Below, piece after piece: positions 38,496-45,235 of a stretch of DNA of 45,930 nt. Source of the stretch: Kiritimatiellia bacterium. Its GTDB lineage: Bacteria; Verrucomicrobiota; Kiritimatiellia; RFP12; UBA1067. The translations under genes were made by a program, and so were the position numbers. Below the pieces are notes generated by a model. The model saw only the letters and a list, made by a program, of their open reading frames with translations. It was not told the DNA's origin and searched no databases. Location: the NCBI GenBank assembly GCA_900767325.1, contig CAAFYT010000069.1:1-45930 (forward strand), read 5' to 3'. The number at the start of each line of letters is the position of its first letter. The stretch's first letter is position 1.

Positions 38496-39614
38496 ATGCG
38501 CGTTTGGGGAATCACGGGAACGAACGGCAAGACCACGACGGCGTGGATTCTCGCGGACTTCATCGGCGCCGAGCGGCCGTGCGGACTGATCACGACGGTC
38601 GAGGTTTCGACGCGTTCGCGCACCTTCTCGACCGGCTACACGACGCCGCCGCTCGATCGGCTCAAGGAGATCTTCGCCGAGATGGAGGCGAACGGCTGCA
38701 CGGACTGCGTGATGGAGGTGTCGTCCCACGCGATCCATCAGCATCGCACGGGCAACACGCTCTTCGCGGGCGGCGCGTTCACGAATCTCTCGGAGGACCA
38801 TCTCGACTACCACAAGACGATGGAGGCGTATTTCGACGTGAAGCTCGACTTCGCGCGACAGATCGCGCGTGCGCGCGGCTCCTCTCCGGCGCCGAATCTG
38901 GGCCGGGGGAACCTGCCGCCTTACGCGGTGTGTCTGGACGGCGGCTTTGGCGCGGAGATGTTCGCGGCGGTCGGGAAGCTGCCGCTCAATGCGCTGCCGG
39001 TTACGGTGCGTGCGCCGCGTTACGACTTGAAGGAGCTGCAGCTCGCGGGCGACTACAACAAGCAGAACGTGCTGCTCGCGGCGACGCTCGCCGAGGCCGC
39101 GGGGATCAGTCGCGCGACGATCGCGCGGCGCATACCGTCCCTGCGGCCGCGCTGGGGACGGTTGGAGCGGGTGGAGAACGAGCGCGTTTCCGCCGCGGTC
39201 TACGTCGATTTCGCCCACACGCCCGACGCCTTGGAGAAGGTCTTGACGGCGGCGCGGGGATTCTGCGGCGGGGCGCTTTGGGTGGTGTTCGGCGCGGGCG
39301 GCGATCGGGACAGCGCGAAGCGTCCCCTAATGGGGGCGGTGGCGGCGCGGCTGGCGGATCGGATCGTCGTCACGAGCGACAATCCGCGCAGCGAGGCGCC
39401 GTTGCAGATCATCGGGCAGATACTCGAGGGGATCGGGGCGCGCGAGGCGACGGTCGAGCCGGATCGGCGCGAGGCGATCTACTTTGCGTTGCGCGAGGCG
39501 TTGCCGGGCGATGTCGTGATCATCGCGGGCAAGGGACACGAAACGACGCAGGAGATCGCCGGCGTGAAGCGTCCATTCGATGACCGCGCGGTTGTCAGGG
39601 GGTTTCAGGAATGA
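38496..39614 (+). CDS. MurE-like Mur ligase lacking the N-terminal UDP-binding domain (372 aa)
   Basis: It begins directly at the P-loop GITGTNGKTTT. It also has MEVSSHAIHQHR, FTNLSEDHLDYH, GAGGDRD and the MurE-type DNPRSE motif. No upstream coding space exists for domain 1. Confidence 0.75.
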   Translation: MRVWGITGTNGKTTTAWILADFIGAERPCGLITTVEVSTRSRTFSTGYTTPPLDRLKEIFAEMEANGCTDCVMEVSSHAIHQHRTGNTLFAGGAFTNLSEDHLDYHKTMEAYFDVKLDFARQIARARGSSPAPNLGRGNLPPYAVCLDGGFGAEMFAAVGKLPLNALPVTVRAPRYDLKELQLAGDYNKQNVLLAATLAEAAGISRATIARRIPSLRPRWGRLERVENERVSAAVYVDFAHTPDALEKVLTAARGFCGGALWVVFGAGGDRDSAKRPLMGAVAARLADRIVVTSDNPRSEAPLQIIGQILEGIGAREATVEPDRREAIYFALREALPGDVVIIAGKGHETTQEIAGVKRPFDDRAVVRGFQE

Positions 39615-40273
39615 ACGGCCCGATCATCGCAGTCCTCCGCGGAGTCGACTCCACTTCCACTTCGACTTCATCTTCGACTTCCCCTTCGACTTCCCATCTT
39701 ATCGCGGCGCTTGCGGAGGGGGGTATTCGGACGGTTGAGTTGGCGTTTTCGGCGTCGGCGCGGGAGAGTTGGCGGGGGACGGCGCGGCTGATCGGCTCTC
39801 TTGTGCGGCGGTTTGGGGGCGAAGTCGAGATTGGCGCGGGGACGGTTCTATTTGCGGAGCAGGTTGAGTTGGCGGCGGAGGCGGGGGCGCGGTTCATGGT
39901 TTCGCCGGTTGTGGACGAGGGGATCATTCGTTTGGCGCGGGGGAGGGGGCTTGAGGTATTGCCGGGGGCGTTCACGCCGACGGAGATTGCGCGGGCGGCG
40001 TCGGCTGGGGCGGGGGCTGTGAAGGTGTTTCCGGCGGGGGCGGTTGGGCCATCGTACATTCGCGCGTTGTCCGCGCCGCTTTCGCATGTTTCGTTTTGGG
40101 CGTTTGGGGGGGTGACGCTTCAGAGCATTGGGGCGTATCGGTCGGCGGGGTGTGTTGGTGTGGGCATCAGCAGTCCGTTCCTCGACCGCGTGGCTCTCTC
40201 GCGCGGCGATTTCGCCTCCATCTCCACCACCGCCCGTCGTTTCGTGTCGGCGTGGGAAGGACAACGGATATGA
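39611..40273 (+). CDS. eda: KDPG/KHG aldolase (Eda family) with a 15-aa Ser/Thr insertion
   Basis: GIRTVELAF, GAGTV, GARFMVSP, PGAFTPTEI, and KVFPA with the catalytic Lys. ATGA overlaps at both ends. Confidence 0.85.
   Translation: MNGPIIAVLRGVDSTSTSTSSSTSPSTSHLIAALAEGGIRTVELAFSASARESWRGTARLIGSLVRRFGGEVEIGAGTVLFAEQVELAAEAGARFMVSPVVDEGIIRLARGRGLEVLPGAFTPTEIARAASAGAGAVKVFPAGAVGPSYIRALSAPLSHVSFWAFGGVTLQSIGAYRSAGCVGVGISSPFLDRVALSRGDFASISTTARRFVSAWEGQRI
39650..39694 (+). repeat. CTTCGACTTCNN-type 12-nt repeats encoding STSTSTSSSTSPSTS inside eda
   Basis: TTCGACTTC occurs at 39661, 39673 and 39685. It is the complement of the GAAGTCGAA words seen in the dksA-like and LysM genes. Confidence 0.85.
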
Positions 40274-41556
40274 CTTGCGGAAATTGGCGTCTTGGGGTCG
40301 AGATTGGTCGCGGGGCATTTGGCGTTGTGCACCATGCGCTCGGGCCAGATGGCGAGAGCGTTGCCATAAGGGTTTGCCGTCGCGCGGACATTGGCGATGA
40401 AAGCTACGCGCGCGAGATTCGCGGTGCGAAGCTCTATGGAACGATACCCCGTTGCGAGGGGCTGCTCTACATGCGGGAGATTGTCGAGACGGACTGGGGC
40501 TTTTACGCCGTTTTCGACCTTGCGGACGACGAATTCGGGGGCGTCTTGGAGTCGACGGGGAACTATCGCCCGAAGACGCTTGCCAAGGTCATCGCCGGAG
40601 AGAAGGCATTGCGTCTGGAGGAGTGCATCGGGCTTGCGATCTCGCTGGCTCGTGGACTGATGGTTCTCCAAAGACACCATCTTCTGCATCGCGACATCAA
40701 GCCGGGGAATGTTCTTTATGTTGGCGGGCGAGCGGTGCTGGCTGATCCGGGGTTGCTCATCGAGGAGGCCGAAGCCGCGTCGCTTGTCGGCACGCCGGGC
40801 TATGTTCCACCGGAGCGGTTCACCGACTCCGCAAGCGATGTCTATAGTCTTGGGCTTACGCTCAAGGCCGCGAGCTTTGGGCGGCAGGTTGATGATCTCA
40901 GCAAGGGACCGGCAATGGAGGCCGACACGGGTGCGGCCTGTTTTCCCGCTTGGTGGCGAATTCTCAACAAGGCGACGGATCCTGTCGCCTCGCGCCGCTA
41001 TCGGTCGGCGAAGGCACTTGCTAAGGATCTTTACCTTTTGCGCTACTGGATGATGTTTGCGAGTTTGTTTCGTAGCAGGTTGCTGGTTGTCGCGATTGTG
41101 GTTCTGTCTGTTTTGTCCGTGATGGCGGCACTTTATTTGCGGAGCTTCATGAGCAAGTCAAAGTACGATGACTTTGTGTCGCGGGCGGATCAAGAGAGAA
41201 AGTCGGTTGCTGAAAAGGCCTTGGCCGATTTCGTGGATAAACGCGTGGCGGAAGATATGCCGGACATCAGGCGGGGCATCAAGGAAGCATATCTGTCAAC
41301 GCTCAACATGATGCGTGATGAGCTTGCGGACAAGAAAAAGGAAATTGCGGAATTTGAAGATCAAATCGCCGAGAGCGAGAAGGATATCAAAGAGGCGGAA
41401 GAAGCGGGCGACAAGAGCCGTAAGGAAGCCATAGAATACAACTTGAGACACAAGAAGAAGTTGCTTGGATTTGTGCAAAAACGCGCGGCTGAACTTGAAC
41501 GGGATATTCCTGCTTGGGAGAAGAAGATCTCTACTTTTGAGGAGAAGCACAAATGA
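40270..41556 (+). CDS. Membrane-anchored Ser/Thr protein-kinase-like protein with atypical catalytic motifs
   Basis: GRGAFGVV, HRDIKPGN and GTPGYVPPE are present. VAIK is VAIR (AGG at 40369-40371) and DFG is DPG (40744-40752). TM helix LLVVAIVVLSVLSVMAALYL, then a Lys/Glu coiled coil. Confidence 0.8.
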   Translation: MTCGNWRLGVEIGRGAFGVVHHALGPDGESVAIRVCRRADIGDESYAREIRGAKLYGTIPRCEGLLYMREIVETDWGFYAVFDLADDEFGGVLESTGNYRPKTLAKVIAGEKALRLEECIGLAISLARGLMVLQRHHLLHRDIKPGNVLYVGGRAVLADPGLLIEEAEAASLVGTPGYVPPERFTDSASDVYSLGLTLKAASFGRQVDDLSKGPAMEADTGAACFPAWWRILNKATDPVASRRYRSAKALAKDLYLLRYWMMFASLFRSRLLVVAIVVLSVLSVMAALYLRSFMSKSKYDDFVSRADQERKSVAEKALADFVDKRVAEDMPDIRRGIKEAYLSTLNMMRDELADKKKEIAEFEDQIAESEKDIKEAEEAGDKSRKEAIEYNLRHKKKLLGFVQKRAAELERDIPAWEKKISTFEEKHK

Positions 41557-42191
41557 CCTATCGGCATTTTAATAACGAGACGACGCGCTCCAGCGTGCTG
41601 AAGGCGGTTGCGAATGTCGGAAACGAAGCCGCGTGGGCGCGGTTCTTCGATCTCTACGCGGGTTTTGTTTTTACGATTGCGCGCAGCCGAGGGCTTTCGG
41701 CGGAGGATGCGGATGATGTCGTGCAGGGGGTTTTCGTCGATCTGTCGCGCCAGATGCCAACATTCGACTACGACCGCGCGCGGGGCAAGTTTCGTTCGTA
41801 TCTTTTCGGCCTTGTCAATTGGCGCATTACCGACAAGTTGAAGGCGAACAAGCGCGAGAGCGATTCGAAGGCCGCATATCTCAACGAGACTGCGGTATCT
41901 GCGGGCGATGCGGCCTTCTTTGAGCGCGAGTGGCAGGAAGCGGCGTTGAACGAAGCCCTGCGGCGGTTGAAGGCGGAGGTGAACGCCGATCATTTCGCCG
42001 CGTTCGTCGAAAGCACCGTCGAAGGCATCGACACCGAATCGGTCGTGAAGCTCCACGGTCTGACGCGCGACAATCTCTACCAGATCCGCACGCGCCTTAC
42101 CGCCAAGCTGAAGCCCCTCGTCGCCGAAGTCCTCAAAGAAATGAACGAAGGCAAGATGCCGCGAATGAATGGCGGCGATCCGCGGTCTTGA
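41553..42191 (+). CDS. ECF-type sigma-70 family factor
   Basis: Region 2-like FFDLYAGFVFTIARSRGLSAEDADDVVQGVFVDL...SYLFGLVNWRITD. Region 4-like VKLHGLTRDNLYQIRTRLTAKL. ATGA overlap with the kinase gene. Confidence 0.75.
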   Translation: MTYRHFNNETTRSSVLKAVANVGNEAAWARFFDLYAGFVFTIARSRGLSAEDADDVVQGVFVDLSRQMPTFDYDRARGKFRSYLFGLVNWRITDKLKANKRESDSKAAYLNETAVSAGDAAFFEREWQEAALNEALRRLKAEVNADHFAAFVESTVEGIDTESVVKLHGLTRDNLYQIRTRLTAKLKPLVAEVLKEMNEGKMPRMNGGDPRS

Positions 42192-43083
42192 TGGCCTCGG
42201 CGATTGCCGAGATGAGACCATCATTGTTCTCTTCGTCAAGCCAGGACCATTGTCCATTGGGGTTGAGCTCGAGGAACCACAGTTCGCCATTCTTCCGAAT
42301 GAAGTCGAACCGCCCGAAGCGATAGCCCGTCTCCGCCATAAAGCCGCGAATGGCGGATTGCTCGGCTGAAGAAAGCGCGCACAACTGCCAGCGGGAGGGA
42401 TTTTCGAGAGAGGCCTTTCGCACATCGTCGCATTCCGTGATTTCTGATCGCGGATAGCGGTAGGCAAAGAGTCTGTCATTGACAGAAACAACAGTTACCT
42501 CATCTTCGCCATCGACTTTTTCCTGAACAAACCATGGATAAGCGAGATCCAAAAGGTGGGGATCAACCTCTTTGACCAAAAACAACTTGCCGGCACCGAT
42601 GGATGCTCCTGTCAAGGCCTTTACAACCCAACGGCCATGATTCAGTTCCTTTGGCAATGTGCCATGGAAAATGTGCCAGTCTGAAACGTTGAAATAATTT
42701 TTTGCGACCTTCATCTGCCGTATCTTGCCATAGGTTTGGTCGCGGCAAACAACAAGGCGAGTGAGCCGTTGCGACTCGCATTCACGATAAAAATCCCTGA
42801 AAAGCTCAAGAGTTTCGTTGCGACACCAATTCTCGGGGCTTCCATTTTTGGGAATGTCAATCGTTTTGAGGTAAATGGGCTTCCTGAGGTAAAAGGACGA
42901 AAGCGTTTTGGAGTTGATGAGCGCGTGGGTTTGGACGTTTGTGATTTCAAATCCGTCGTGGAAAAAATGCCATGAGTAGTCTTCGGGTTTGTCTATGTTG
43001 AACCGAAAAACATCTGACTCGTTCAAGTGTGGGATTAGAATGTTGCTTGCGCCATCTTGACTGCAAGTGAGAATGAAGATCAT
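42133..43083 (-). CDS. MvdD/RimK-type ATP-grasp ligase (candidate graspetide macrocyclase)
   Basis: N-terminus MIFILTCSQDGAS compares with MvdD MTVLIVTFSRDNES. C-terminus YRFGRFDFIRKNGELWFLELNPNGQWSWL compares with MvdD YGAIDMIV...IFLEINPVGEFFWL. AAGGAG RBS before ATG 43083. GC is lower than the surrounding sequence. Confidence 0.75.
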   Translation of the reverse strand: MIFILTCSQDGASNILIPHLNESDVFRFNIDKPEDYSWHFFHDGFEITNVQTHALINSKTLSSFYLRKPIYLKTIDIPKNGSPENWCRNETLELFRDFYRECESQRLTRLVVCRDQTYGKIRQMKVAKNYFNVSDWHIFHGTLPKELNHGRWVVKALTGASIGAGKLFLVKEVDPHLLDLAYPWFVQEKVDGEDEVTVVSVNDRLFAYRYPRSEITECDDVRKASLENPSRWQLCALSSAEQSAIRGFMAETGYRFGRFDFIRKNGELWFLELNPNGQWSWLDEENNDGLISAIAEAIKTADRRHSFAASCLRSFL

Positions 43084-43116
43084 AGGCGATGGGCTCCTTG
43101 CATGAGGTGGGGAAAG

Positions 43117-43163
43117 GAGGTGGCGTTTTACCGCCACCTCATAGCGCTAATCTTGCGATTAGC
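43117..43163 (-). promoter_or_regulatory. Two hairpins between the precursor and the ATP-grasp gene (attenuator or partial terminator candidate)
   Basis: GCTAATC-TTGC-GATTAGC at 43146-43163. GAGGTGGCG-(6 nt)-CGCCACCTC at 43117-43140, followed on the minus strand by CUUUCCCC. Confidence 0.5.
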
Positions 43164-43179
43164 AACCTTTGCGGACAGA

Positions 43180-43290
43180 TTAGCAGAAATCCTGCCAATC
43201 ACTTCCACCAGCAGTTTGACTTATGGTTGCGTTGACAGAGCCCGTCCCAACGGGAATCGTCACGGTCGTCGCAATGTCTATAGGTGTCAT
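43180..43290 (-). CDS. 36-aa candidate graspetide precursor MTPIDIATTVTIPVGTGSVNATISQTAGGSDWQDFC (absent from the ORF track)
   Basis: Hand translation of the minus strand. GAAAGGAAAG RBS 5-6 nt upstream of ATG 43290, TAA stop at 43180-43182. Located between the ABC and ATP-grasp genes. Thr/Ser plus Asp rich. SDWQDF resembles the microviridin core PSDWEEY. Confidence 0.6.
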   Translation of the reverse strand: MTPIDIATTVTIPVGTGSVNATISQTAGGSDWQDFC

Positions 43291-43347
43291 TGTTTCTTTC
43301 CTTTCTTGTTTTGCTTTGGTTAACCAAACGCAGCGGACACTCGCCCG

Positions 43348-45015
43348 CTACATAATGATATACGAACGATCTTCGTTGGTCTGACAGAAAATTTTCGCGT
43401 CGCACAATTCGTCCAGTTCGGCGTCGTGTCCGGCGAGGAGAATGATGCGTCCTGGGCGAAGCCGCGCGACGAGGCCGGCGAATGTTCTGCGAGACGCAAC
43501 GTCGAGATGGTTCGTGGCTTCGTCCAGGACAAGAATGGATGGGTTGCGGATGATGGCGCGGGCGATGGCGAGGCGTTGCCGTTCGCCGCCCGAAAGCATG
43601 CGGTGGCGCGCGCCGATGCGTGTTTGGAGTCCATCGGGGAGGCGCTTTACGACGGCTTCGAATCCGCTGAGAGCGAGCGCCTTGTCGATATCTGGTTGCG
43701 TGTAGGCAGGGTCTCGCAGGGTGATGTTGTCCCGAATTGTTCCATCGATGATGAGGTTGTCTTGGCAAACGACGGCGAGGCGCTTGCGGAAAACGGCGGG
43801 GTCGAGCGAGGCGAGAGGACTGCCGTTGACGAGAACCTGGCCTTTCTGCGGCTCCAAGGCACCGAGGGCGAGCTTGAGGAGTGTGGATTTTCCCGTGCCG
43901 TTGGATCCGAAAAGTCCAATCACGGAATTCGTGTGGATTGTGGTGGAAAAATCGCGGATTACAGGGCAATTGGGTTCCTTTGGATAGGCGAATGTAACAT
44001 GGTCAAATGCGAGAGAGCTGAGGGCGTTGGGGCGAATGGCGCCCTGTTTGATCGGCGGGCGGTCAAGTACTTCGTTCAGCGAATCAACGCCTTCGCGCAA
44101 GGCGGCGAGGTCGGGAAGCAATCCAATGACGCCCTGGATGGATTGAAACGCCGCGATGAAGAGCATTTGGTAGAGAACGACGTCGCCAACGGGTATGGAG
44201 CCATTCGCCGCAAGCGAGCCCGCAATGCCGAGTACGGCGACTTCGCCTCCGATGAGAAGGGCACCGAGGAGGAATCCGAAGCGGCTGGCGAGCGCATCGG
44301 CAATGTCGTTGCCGTTGCGTAGCCCCTCCAGCGCGGTGCGTGGTGCATCGGCGAAGCGCCGCTCGGCATCGTGGAGACGGAGGAAGGGGAGGGACTGGAG
44401 GAATGCGAAGAGGGCGCAGAACGAGGCATCGTTCTGGCGCCTGACGCGATGGGAGTTCGCGGCGAAACATCGCACAAACGGCGAGAAGAGGGCAACGACG
44501 AGCGGAAAGAACGCCACAAAGGCGACAGAGAGGATCGTCGAGCGCGAATAAAGAGCGACGCCAGATGAAAGCATCATCACCGTGGCCTGGAGCAACTGCG
44601 GGTAAAGCCCTCGAACGAATCCGCCGATAGCGTAAGCATCGCGCGTCAGCTTGGCGACGATTTCGCCGTTGGCGATGTCGACGAGGTGGCAGGGCGGGAG
44701 AGCCATCGTCGCATCAAGAACGCGGAACTGGAGATCTTGCTCAACTGCGCGGGAGCGGGCGGCGATGTAGCGTTGGAGAACGGGGGCGAGCGCGGCCTTG
44801 GCGAGAAGAAGGAGGGCGAGGACGATGAATGGACCGCTGAACGGCTGGCGGCAAACGAGTGCATCGACGAATCGTCCAGTGGCGAAGGGCGCGGCGACGC
44901 CGATCAAGGTGAGTAAAACCAGGAGTGGCGAATAGGCGAGGAGAACGCCTGGCGATGAGGCAAGGACGGCGAAAAGGAATCTTCCGCGCTTCAGGTTTGT
45001 TCTGAACGAGTTCAT
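43348..45015 (-). CDS. ABC transporter with fused permease and ATPase (exporter type, no peptidase domain)
   Basis: ATG 45015 (MNSFRTNLKRG). N-terminal TM region. Walker A GSNGTGKST, signature LSGGERQR and Walker B ILVLDEAT. Confidence 0.85.
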   Translation of the reverse strand: MNSFRTNLKRGRFLFAVLASSPGVLLAYSPLLVLLTLIGVAAPFATGRFVDALVCRQPFSGPFIVLALLLLAKAALAPVLQRYIAARSRAVEQDLQFRVLDATMALPPCHLVDIANGEIVAKLTRDAYAIGGFVRGLYPQLLQATVMMLSSGVALYSRSTILSVAFVAFFPLVVALFSPFVRCFAANSHRVRRQNDASFCALFAFLQSLPFLRLHDAERRFADAPRTALEGLRNGNDIADALASRFGFLLGALLIGGEVAVLGIAGSLAANGSIPVGDVVLYQMLFIAAFQSIQGVIGLLPDLAALREGVDSLNEVLDRPPIKQGAIRPNALSSLAFDHVTFAYPKEPNCPVIRDFSTTIHTNSVIGLFGSNGTGKSTLLKLALGALEPQKGQVLVNGSPLASLDPAVFRKRLAVVCQDNLIIDGTIRDNITLRDPAYTQPDIDKALALSGFEAVVKRLPDGLQTRIGARHRMLSGGERQRLAIARAIIRNPSILVLDEATNHLDVASRRTFAGLVARLRPGRIILLAGHDAELDELCDAKIFCQTNEDRSYIIM

Positions 45016-45235
45016 GGCTTCACTCTGATATACGAAGGTCGCTTGGAGGTCTGACAACGATCGGAGTATTGCAAAAGGAACGGAAGAGGTGATTTTTGCA
45101 TTTTGTTGGAGAAACAACTGAAAGCATCGGAGCAAAAGTCCATAATATGCGGCGTCGCGAGGCAAGCGGCGTCAGGCTTGAGTCGAGCGTGGCCGAGAAA
45201 TGTGCCGATGCGACGAAACGGAAAGGAAAACGAAC

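Follow-up and report, generated by a model that had tools for sequence, protein, structure and literature searches.

Graspetides are peptides made by the ribosome and modified after translation (RiPPs) whose side chains are cross-linked by ATP-grasp ligases, and the members characterized so far are all protease inhibitors (PMC8939145). In the microviridins (MdnA with MdnB/MdnC, or MvdE with MvdC/MvdD), a precursor with an N-terminal leader, marked by the motif PFFARFL, and a C-terminal core of the type TxKxPSDx(E/D)(D/E) is served by two paralogous ATP-grasp macrocyclases and a GNAT protein, whereas marinostatin, plesiocin (PsnA/PsnB), and thuringinin manage with a single ATP-grasp enzyme and with Thr/Ser–Asp/Glu esters that involve no Lys (see also PMC8939145). 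A further branch, the actinobacterial SAV_5884 type (TIGR04187; Makarova cluster 2; PruB/prunipeptin), has XRE/DUF397 or PIMT proteins as partners. Regulators known from graspetide clusters are of the XRE, AcrR, or OmpR type (PMC8939145), while the direct phosphorylation of extracytoplasmic function (ECF) sigma factors by partner Ser/Thr kinases has been established for ECF43-type pairs, that is, EcfP/PknT of Vibrio parahaemolyticus and EcfK/PknS of Xanthomonas citri (PMC7826278, PMC13147305). Here, we describe a 36-codon open reading frame (ORF) at 43290..43180 on the minus strand of a Kiritimatiellia bacterium contig (CAAFYT010000069.1, assembly GCA_900767325.1; its whole stretch of 45,930 nucleotides is called the window below). 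This ORF quite probably encodes a graspetide precursor whose side chains are cross-linked by the adjacent ATP-grasp ligase, within a module that also comprises an exporter, an ECF sigma factor, and a kinase.

A conserved precursor gene

The ORF translates into MTPIDIATTVTIPVGTGSVNATISQTAGGSDWQDFC, with a leader of approximately residues 1–17 that carries the motif MTPxDIAT and a core of approximately residues 18–36 that ends in TAGGSDWQDFC. A sequence-only reading of this DNA had given its coordinates, translation, three Ser, three Asp, and lack of Lys and Glu correctly, and erred solely in counting eight Thr where there are seven. Taken alone, the ORF is unremarkable because 99 ORFs of at least 25 amino acids (aa) overlap the surrounding 8 kb of this GC-rich window. 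The exact 36-aa peptide is absent from a collection of 15 billion proteins and thus went unannotated in this record. Short ORFs being so abundant here and the peptide being uncalled, one might consider a frame that is open by chance within intergenic regulatory DNA; this explanation, however, is effectively refuted by conservation, which shows the ORF to be more than a product of chance.

Relatives of the ligase were retrieved in 43 genome loci, all from metagenome-assembled genomes and nearly all labeled Kiritimatiellae or Verrucomicrobia (with a few Lentisphaerae, Opitutae, and Selenomonadaceae); wherever a source was named, it was the ruminant gut. In 37 loci the region upstream of the ligase is intact, and every one of these carries a small ORF of the same family there, 55–120 nt before the ligase (186 nt in one locus); in most of them it starts with MTP(N/S/D/Q)(D/E)(I/V)AT, three showing MAP- or MSTP- variants. 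When metagenomes were scanned with a DNA pattern based on the conserved stretch upstream, 73 loci came up, 60 of which encode the same kind of peptide. The precursor set comprises 83 distinct peptides, including that of the closest relative (locus L118), and more than 90 loci agree in reading frame, start, length class, and motifs. The view of the sequence-only reading that a RiPP precursor sits beside a single ATP-grasp maturase is supported, and conservation of the ORF next to homologous ligases, which it had named as a check, is observed.

The pattern of substitution points to the same conclusion. Across the 83 coding sequences, leader codons 3 and 5–8 have zero or near-zero entropy at codon positions 1 and 2 and 0.6–1.7 bits at position 3, and in the 27 sequences ending in TWD the codons for DD, T, and the final D of DDxxTWD behave alike, their variation being essentially confined to the third position. 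Selection therefore acts on the encoded peptide. In addition, a ribosome-binding site (AAAGGAAAG, 43296..43304, minus strand) is located 8 nt upstream of the start codon, and homologous ORFs were annotated by gene callers in two related loci (L117 and L118). The 36-codon ORF is thus confirmed as a real, conserved gene for a ribosomal peptide. Neither Pfam nor NCBIfam has a family that matches the precursor peptide.

The arrangement extends to distant ligase relatives (27–43 % identity), in which a small upstream ORF of 42–67 aa combines an [ST]PxD[IL] segment (MNPLDLST, SPLDLARP, SPIDLLEP, SPTDITPS) with a Thr-rich acidic C-terminus. In one metagenome contig (Ga0256405_10108020), two different precursor genes stand in tandem upstream of a single ligase, and multi-precursor clusters therefore exist in the family. 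Three other loci (L119, L120, L121) with 64–67-aa precursors and distant ligases lie beside phage-type integrase, DDE transposase, and toxin–antitoxin genes and have no exporter, sigma factor, or kinase; these neighbors suggest that the minimal precursor–ligase pair is mobile.

The adjacent ATP-grasp ligase

Downstream of the precursor, at 42133..43083 on the minus strand, a 316-aa protein starting with MIFILTCSQDG is encoded, a divergent ATP-grasp enzyme homologous to graspetide synthetases. Its best NCBIfam match is TIGR04187 (SAV_5884; E = 1.5e-21, score 76.9 against a cut-off of 350, residues 168–316 only), followed by partial matches to MvdC (E = 4e-16, score 59, cut-off 425) and MvdD (E = 1e-8, score 34.7, cut-off 475), so that the protein is closer to the amide-forming MvdC/MdnB than to MvdD/MdnC. 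Homologues number in the hundreds; in a search of 1.84 billion cluster representatives, E ≤ 1e-30 was reached by 129 clusters and E ≤ 1e-3 by 4,467. A profile built from 108 sequences of the broader family aligned over the full length with graspetide synthetases in the PDB, namely AMdnB (7.6e-39), MdnB (2.8e-37), CdnC (1.1e-36), MdnC (7.5e-32), and PruB (3.1e-27). The ATP-grasp columns K155, E272, and N274 as well as the FGRxDF...ELNPNGQW block are invariant or nearly so.

The same relationship emerges at the level of the fold. An AlphaFold2 model based on the 108-sequence alignment reached a mean predicted local distance difference test (pLDDT) of 96.7 and a predicted TM-score of 0.92 (an earlier model from an 18-sequence alignment, with a pLDDT of 58.6, was discarded), and the best 29 PDB matches in a fold search are all graspetide macrocyclases (AMdnB, PruB, MdnC, CdnC, MdnB, PsnB), with RimK and D-Ala-D-Ala ligase (Ddl) below them. 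Global TM-scores amount to only ~0.45, as expected for a multi-domain enzyme captured in differing open and closed states.

The presence of RimK and Ddl lower in that list, together with a cross-linking chemistry that is deduced from homology, leaves some room for an unmodified secreted peptide or bacteriocin, with the ATP-grasp protein acting elsewhere, for example, in RimK-like C-terminal addition of amino acids or in immunity. We consider this distinctly unlikely: the best matches in both sequence and structure are without exception RiPP macrocyclases, donor and acceptor residues make up the core as they typically do in graspetides, and the pairing of precursor and ligase is invariant, even in the distant relatives devoid of ATP-binding cassette (ABC) transporter, sigma factor, and kinase. 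What is found beside the homologous ligase is what a graspetide cluster would be expected to contain, that is, an adjacent short precursor with a conserved leader, a Thr/Ser-rich core, and an invariant Asp.

Core classes and the likeness to microviridins

The 83 precursors fall into four core classes. Class A (39 distinct peptides) reads ..STNFTYTF(x)nMDDANTWD, class B (20 peptides) ..TGTQSFVGQNWTIDDANQxG, and class C (16 peptides) ..WSTMATYC(x)nVPDDQRSWD, while class D, to which the window peptide belongs, comprises eight peptides of the form ..[ST]x[SQ]T[LAFMC][GN]G[QKS]D[WF][NQ][QD][WFY][DCM]S?. All share a frame that opens with a Thr/Ser-rich stretch and a loop whose length varies. Next comes an Asp found in every peptide (Asp31 in the window peptide, and usually the second D of DD); after three non-conserved positions, an aromatic residue precedes D or G. 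This frame condenses into a family signature of a T-rich stretch and D(D)xxx[W/F][D/G]. A neighbor-joining tree of the ligases shows the core classes intermingled, with class D spread over three separate lineages; such intermingling fits leader-directed ligases that tolerate varied cores, as would be in keeping with the core tolerance noted for other graspetide branches (PMC8939145).

It is at the C-terminal end of the window peptide that a likeness to microviridins suggests itself, and the sequence-only reading had indeed proposed a microviridin-like core with a conserved SDW(Q/E)(D/E) motif. Put more broadly, the system could be a variant of the microviridin class (group 1), in which a T-x-x-x-S-D-W-x-D core is linked in the microviridin manner minus the Lys amide, giving an ester-only cage of the marinostatin type. 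SDWQD does locally resemble the microviridin SDWEE, MdnB and MdnC are distant relatives of the ligase, and the two systems share an N-terminal leader, a C-terminal core, and a homologous ATP-grasp macrocyclase. The S-D-W resemblance, however, is peculiar to the window peptide and not conserved among its homologues: 75 of the 83 precursors lack SDW(Q/E)(D/E) and end in D-D-x-x-x-[W/F/C/L/M]-[D/G] instead. Even within class D, where Thr26 and Asp31 are invariant and Trp32 is nearly so, Ser30 occurs only in the window peptide and in its closest relative L118 (ligase 81 % identical, peptide ending in ...ISQTCGGSDWQDFM) and is replaced by Q or K in the others, and Asp34 is mostly Gln (in five of the eight peptides, which carry an Asp two residues later). 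Moreover, the spacing between Thr and Ser is one residue shorter than in microviridins, and Glu12, the ester partner of Ser9 there, corresponds to Gln33 here. The TxKxPSDx(E/D)(D/E) core is not present, PFFARFL is missing from the window peptide and from all 83 precursors, a single ATP-grasp gene and neither a second ligase nor a GNAT gene were found in the window, and the ligase stays far below the MvdC and MvdD cut-offs given above. A microviridin-class variant is therefore highly improbable, and the cluster, without the microviridin leader, core, second ligase, and GNAT, would be classed by enzyme homology and gene organization as a graspetide cluster outside the microviridins.

The microviridin interpretation of the sequence-only reading accordingly holds only loosely and is partly supported. 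Two of its elements fared well. It had noted the absence of PFFARFL and anticipated a different mode of leader recognition, and the precursors carry MTPxDIAT, or more broadly [ST]PxD[IL], in its place; it had also predicted ester bonds from the absence of Lys, and since no conserved Lys occurs in the cores of the 83 precursors, ester rather than Lys-amide links are indeed to be expected. The C-terminal Cys, which it had singled out as unusual, is Met in L118 and D, S, or G elsewhere and is probably incidental.

Position among the graspetides

As judged from sequence comparison, the nearest named relatives would be the microviridin-type ligases and the actinobacterial SAV_5884/PruB branch. TIGR04187 gives the best NCBIfam match, PruB (9bou) is among the top matches in both sequence and fold, and the precursors of Salinispora cluster 2, with a (S/N)PLDLT leader segment and a ..WDDKD end, echo the [ST]PxD[IL] and DDxxxWD segments seen here. 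The ligase nevertheless falls well short of the TIGR04187 cut-off, with only its C-terminal half aligned, and thus lies outside that subfamily as defined; its hosts are gut/rumen Kiritimatiellae instead of actinobacteria, its precursors are much shorter, and where the actinobacterial clusters have XRE/DUF397 or PIMT proteins, its partners are an ABC exporter, an ECF sigma factor, and a Ser/Thr kinase. With marinostatin, plesiocin, and thuringinin, the family would share the single ATP-grasp enzyme and Lys-free Thr/Ser–Asp/Glu esters, the plesiocin ligase PsnB being among the structural matches, if weaker than the microviridin-type ligases. In contrast to these systems, the MTPxDIAT leader motif lies at the extreme N-terminus, the core follows T-rich...D(D)xxx[W/F][D/G], and cores are single-copy and unrepeated.

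The family motifs and Kiritimatiellae were not found in the covered portions of the text and supplements of the 174-family survey (Makarova 2022, PMC8939145), nor were the motifs and the phylum in those of the 2026 RODEO update with its 43 groups (PMC13097080). Neither survey, as far as covered, gives a sigma-factor association for graspetides; in the co-occurrence tables of the RODEO update, within the same limits, Sigma70_r2 is listed for no graspetide group and protein kinase for two groups only (~18 %; PMC13097080). The family is thus apparently undescribed; earlier cataloguing is possible, as coverage of the survey supplements was partial. Graspetide diversity is already known to be vast, and the new part lies in the regulatory wiring described below and in a compact, core-tolerant system, with its leader motif at the very N-terminus, its core signature, and four interchangeable core classes that go with closely related ligases. 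The family is abundant in ruminant-gut Kiritimatiellae, a poorly studied and largely uncultured group, and its short precursors and core-tolerant ligase make for a compact, testable system for RiPP enzymology.

Proposed maturation

For the window peptide, we propose that the N-terminal MTPxDIAT segment docks on the adjacent ligase, which would phosphorylate the carboxylates of core Asp residues (Asp31 and a second Asp) to acyl phosphates. Attack by Thr/Ser hydroxyls would then yield omega-ester (lactone) rings, presumably two in this peptide. The likeliest links are Thr26–Asp31, favored because it is the only donor/acceptor pair conserved across class D, together with an outer ring that joins Thr22 or Ser24 with Asp34. 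By analogy with the ester-only graspetides, a nested two-ring topology on adjacent DD acceptors is plausible for most family members. The co-transcribed ABC transporter would export the peptide, and leader removal, if any, may take place near the conserved G-x-G-(N/S)-(I/V) at residues 15–19 by a protease encoded elsewhere, as is common among graspetides (PMC8939145). With regard to activity, our best guess is a secreted protease inhibitor or an effector acting between bacteria, with a core that is hypervariable; cores of this kind would also be suited to antagonism or signaling.

Exporter, sigma factor, and kinase

The minus strand carries exporter, precursor, and ligase in this order. The ABC exporter (43348..45015, ~555 aa from the ATG at 45015; PF00664 and PF00005) fuses transmembrane and ATPase domains and has no C39 peptidase domain; its homologue in L118 is annotated with 555 aa. 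Among the 37 loci with a full ligase, 33 have the exporter immediately before the precursor, and the count rises to 34 with the truncated locus L042 added. Encoded on the plus strand and converging on the ligase gene are a membrane Ser/Thr protein kinase (40270..41556; Pfam Pkinase), which consists of a cytoplasmic Hanks-type domain, a single membrane-spanning helix, and a K/E-rich coiled-coil tail that varies, and an ECF-type sigma-70 family sigma factor of 212 aa (41553..42191; Pfam Sigma70_r2). The latter passes the TIGR02937 model of the sigma70-ECF superfamily, whose members have regions 2 and 4 only (55 bits, cut-off 42.9, residues 27–187), and its start overlaps the kinase stop (ATGA) in the window. 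In the kinase family, HRD is intact and DFG is replaced by DPG. The 3' ends of the sigma factor and ligase genes overlap by 59 bp (42133..42191), as similarly seen elsewhere, for example, in L012.

The kinase–sigma pair is found within 6 kb of the ligase in approximately 30 of the 37 loci and in at least four arrangements (convergent or co-directional when downstream, co-directional or divergent when upstream). That the linkage outlasts rearrangement argues for a functional coupling to the peptide genes. The pairing of both genes is itself conserved, without an anti-sigma factor, which is reminiscent of the ECF43 type, where an ECF-type sigma factor likewise accompanies a transmembrane Hanks-type kinase and neighboring target genes follow a conserved -35/-10 motif; phosphorylation of the sigma factor would be assumed here by analogy, and the targets, unlike those of the ECF43 pairs, would be a RiPP cluster. 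On contig DGHT01000045.1, an intact exporter–precursor–ligase set (L016) has no sigma factor or kinase within 6 kb, and ~30 kb away on the same contig a sigma–kinase pair lies beside short exporter and ligase fragments (L042), apparently a decayed second module.

ECF promoters typically have a CGT-containing -10 element at 15–16 nt from the -35 element. Two promoter-like motifs of this type with a common 26-nt geometry occur in the window, both within the cluster and on the minus strand, one upstream of the precursor and within the 3' end of the ABC gene (TGTCAGA-N15-CGTA(TA), 43361..43386) and one 16 nt upstream of the ABC start codon (TGTCAGACC-N13-TTCGTATATCA, 45031..45056). A loose version of the pattern matches three times in the window against 0.18 expected, the third match being spaced differently, and in nearly all related loci the motif recurs ~300 nt and ~1,980 nt before the ligase start. 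A generic scan for sigma-70 promoters and terminators gave no convincing site for the cluster, and a literature search on the TGTCAGA motif returned nothing useful. In related loci (for example, L002, L004, and L025), TGTCAGATT-N13-CGTA is often found in divergent orientation on the opposite strand, ~2,000 nt upstream of the ligase start and facing away from the exporter promoter, and in some loci (L025, L029) up to five copies are present in 13 kb; it is probably used by several paralogous sigma factors or across a larger regulon.

We propose that the linked sigma factor reads the exporter and precursor promoters under the control of the linked membrane kinase. An extension of this scheme would be an autoinducer loop, in which the exported, stapled graspetide is sensed directly or indirectly by the kinase, the ECF sigma factor, phosphorylated by the kinase, activates the peptide's own promoters, and the four core classes represent pherotypes among gut Kiritimatiellae; if true, a quorum-sensing-like loop would be built from a graspetide and a kinase/sigma pair. 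The tight linkage of the pair to the peptide genes across rearrangements, the ECF-type promoters in front of exporter and precursor, and the coincidence of hypervariable peptide cores with hypervariable extracytoplasmic kinase tails (K/E-rich coiled coils of 50–370 aa) are compatible with such a loop. Direct sensing, however, predicts that tail type tracks peptide class, and this is not the case: L017, L018, and L038 have the same tail type with classes B, A, and C, and L002 and L040 share a tail with classes A and C. The tails are, moreover, low-complexity coiled coils with no recognizable ligand-binding domain, and an ECF-type promoter was not found before the kinase–sigma operon in the window. 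We thus regard an autoinducer loop as rather unlikely and favor a graspetide cluster that is controlled by the pair.

Several observations weigh against this preferred assignment or parts of it. The ligase scores well under all curated family cut-offs and finds no match in Pfam, and its chemistry may therefore differ from that of known graspetide synthetases. No leader peptidase is encoded, the transporter being without a peptidase domain. It is from co-localization that we infer the sigma factor to read these promoters; several sigma/kinase paralogues exist per genome, and the absence of a matching motif upstream of the window's kinase–sigma operon means that this sign of autoregulation, which was sought, is missing. 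Finally, the window kinase has VAIR, that is, Arg in place of the beta3 'VAIK' Lys (Lys in at least 90 % of 37 homologues), and the kinase, and with it regulation, may be impaired or weakened in this genome. Should the assignment hold, the wiring of an ECF sigma factor and a Ser/Thr kinase to a readable promoter motif would be the first for a graspetide cluster within the part of the literature covered by our search, and it would offer a route to learning the targets of kinase-controlled ECF sigma factors in the Planctomycetes–Verrucomicrobia–Chlamydiae (PVC) superphylum.

RNA elements of the precursor transcript

The predicted precursor transcript begins with a 5'-terminal stem-loop of 11 bp with a GAGU loop (43328..43353, minus strand). 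In 73 of 77 loci, this hairpin begins 11 nt after the C of CGTA, with a family loop of GNGU and covarying pairs (CG/UG/UA, GC/CG/AU, and AU/GU/GC); as the search demanded the inner five pairs, their 100 % pairing is partly by construction. Between the hairpin and the ribosome-binding site lies a perfect 12-bp palindrome, TTGGTTAACCAA (43316..43327, minus strand), which is nearly invariant across loci and is replaced in distant ones (L034, L035, L117) by other palindromes, CCTGATCAGG and CCTAATTAGG; conceivably, it serves as an operator or forms a small RNA hairpin.

The spacer between precursor and ligase contains a GC-rich hairpin with a 9-bp stem followed by CTTTCCCC (43117..43140, minus strand) and a second, small hairpin (43146..43163, minus strand). 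A strong GC-rich hairpin is present in this spacer in all 64 distinct loci, usually with a T-run after it, and resembles a leaky terminator or an attenuator. Folding of the 272-nt precursor transcript region gives a z-score of -4.05, and Rfam contains no family for the hairpins of the 5' untranslated region or the spacer. Overall, these elements look like the layout usual for RiPPs, with a precursor message that is stabilized and plentiful and with transcription that partly reads through into the enzyme gene; here, the 5' stem-loop and the leaky terminator would keep precursor mRNA in excess over ligase mRNA.

Further features of the window

A sub-threshold Rfam match to flg-Rhizobiales inside the sigma factor gene was taken as chance. 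Over ligase and precursor (42400..43400), the GC content drops to 0.46–0.48, compared with 0.60–0.73 in flanking housekeeping genes, which suggests that the module core was acquired from a lower-GC relative. Near the contig end, the segment 45630..45715 holds a 22-bp unit (TGAGCGTTATATAACGGTTGGT), with the palindrome CGTTATATAACG inside it, in four tandem copies; this array, which lies ~570 nt upstream of the exporter promoter, looks like a set of protein-binding sites. Short tandem repeats with periods of 6, 12, and 18 nt (39645..39695) encode a STSTSSSTSPSTS insert near the N-terminus of the ORF at 39611..40273.

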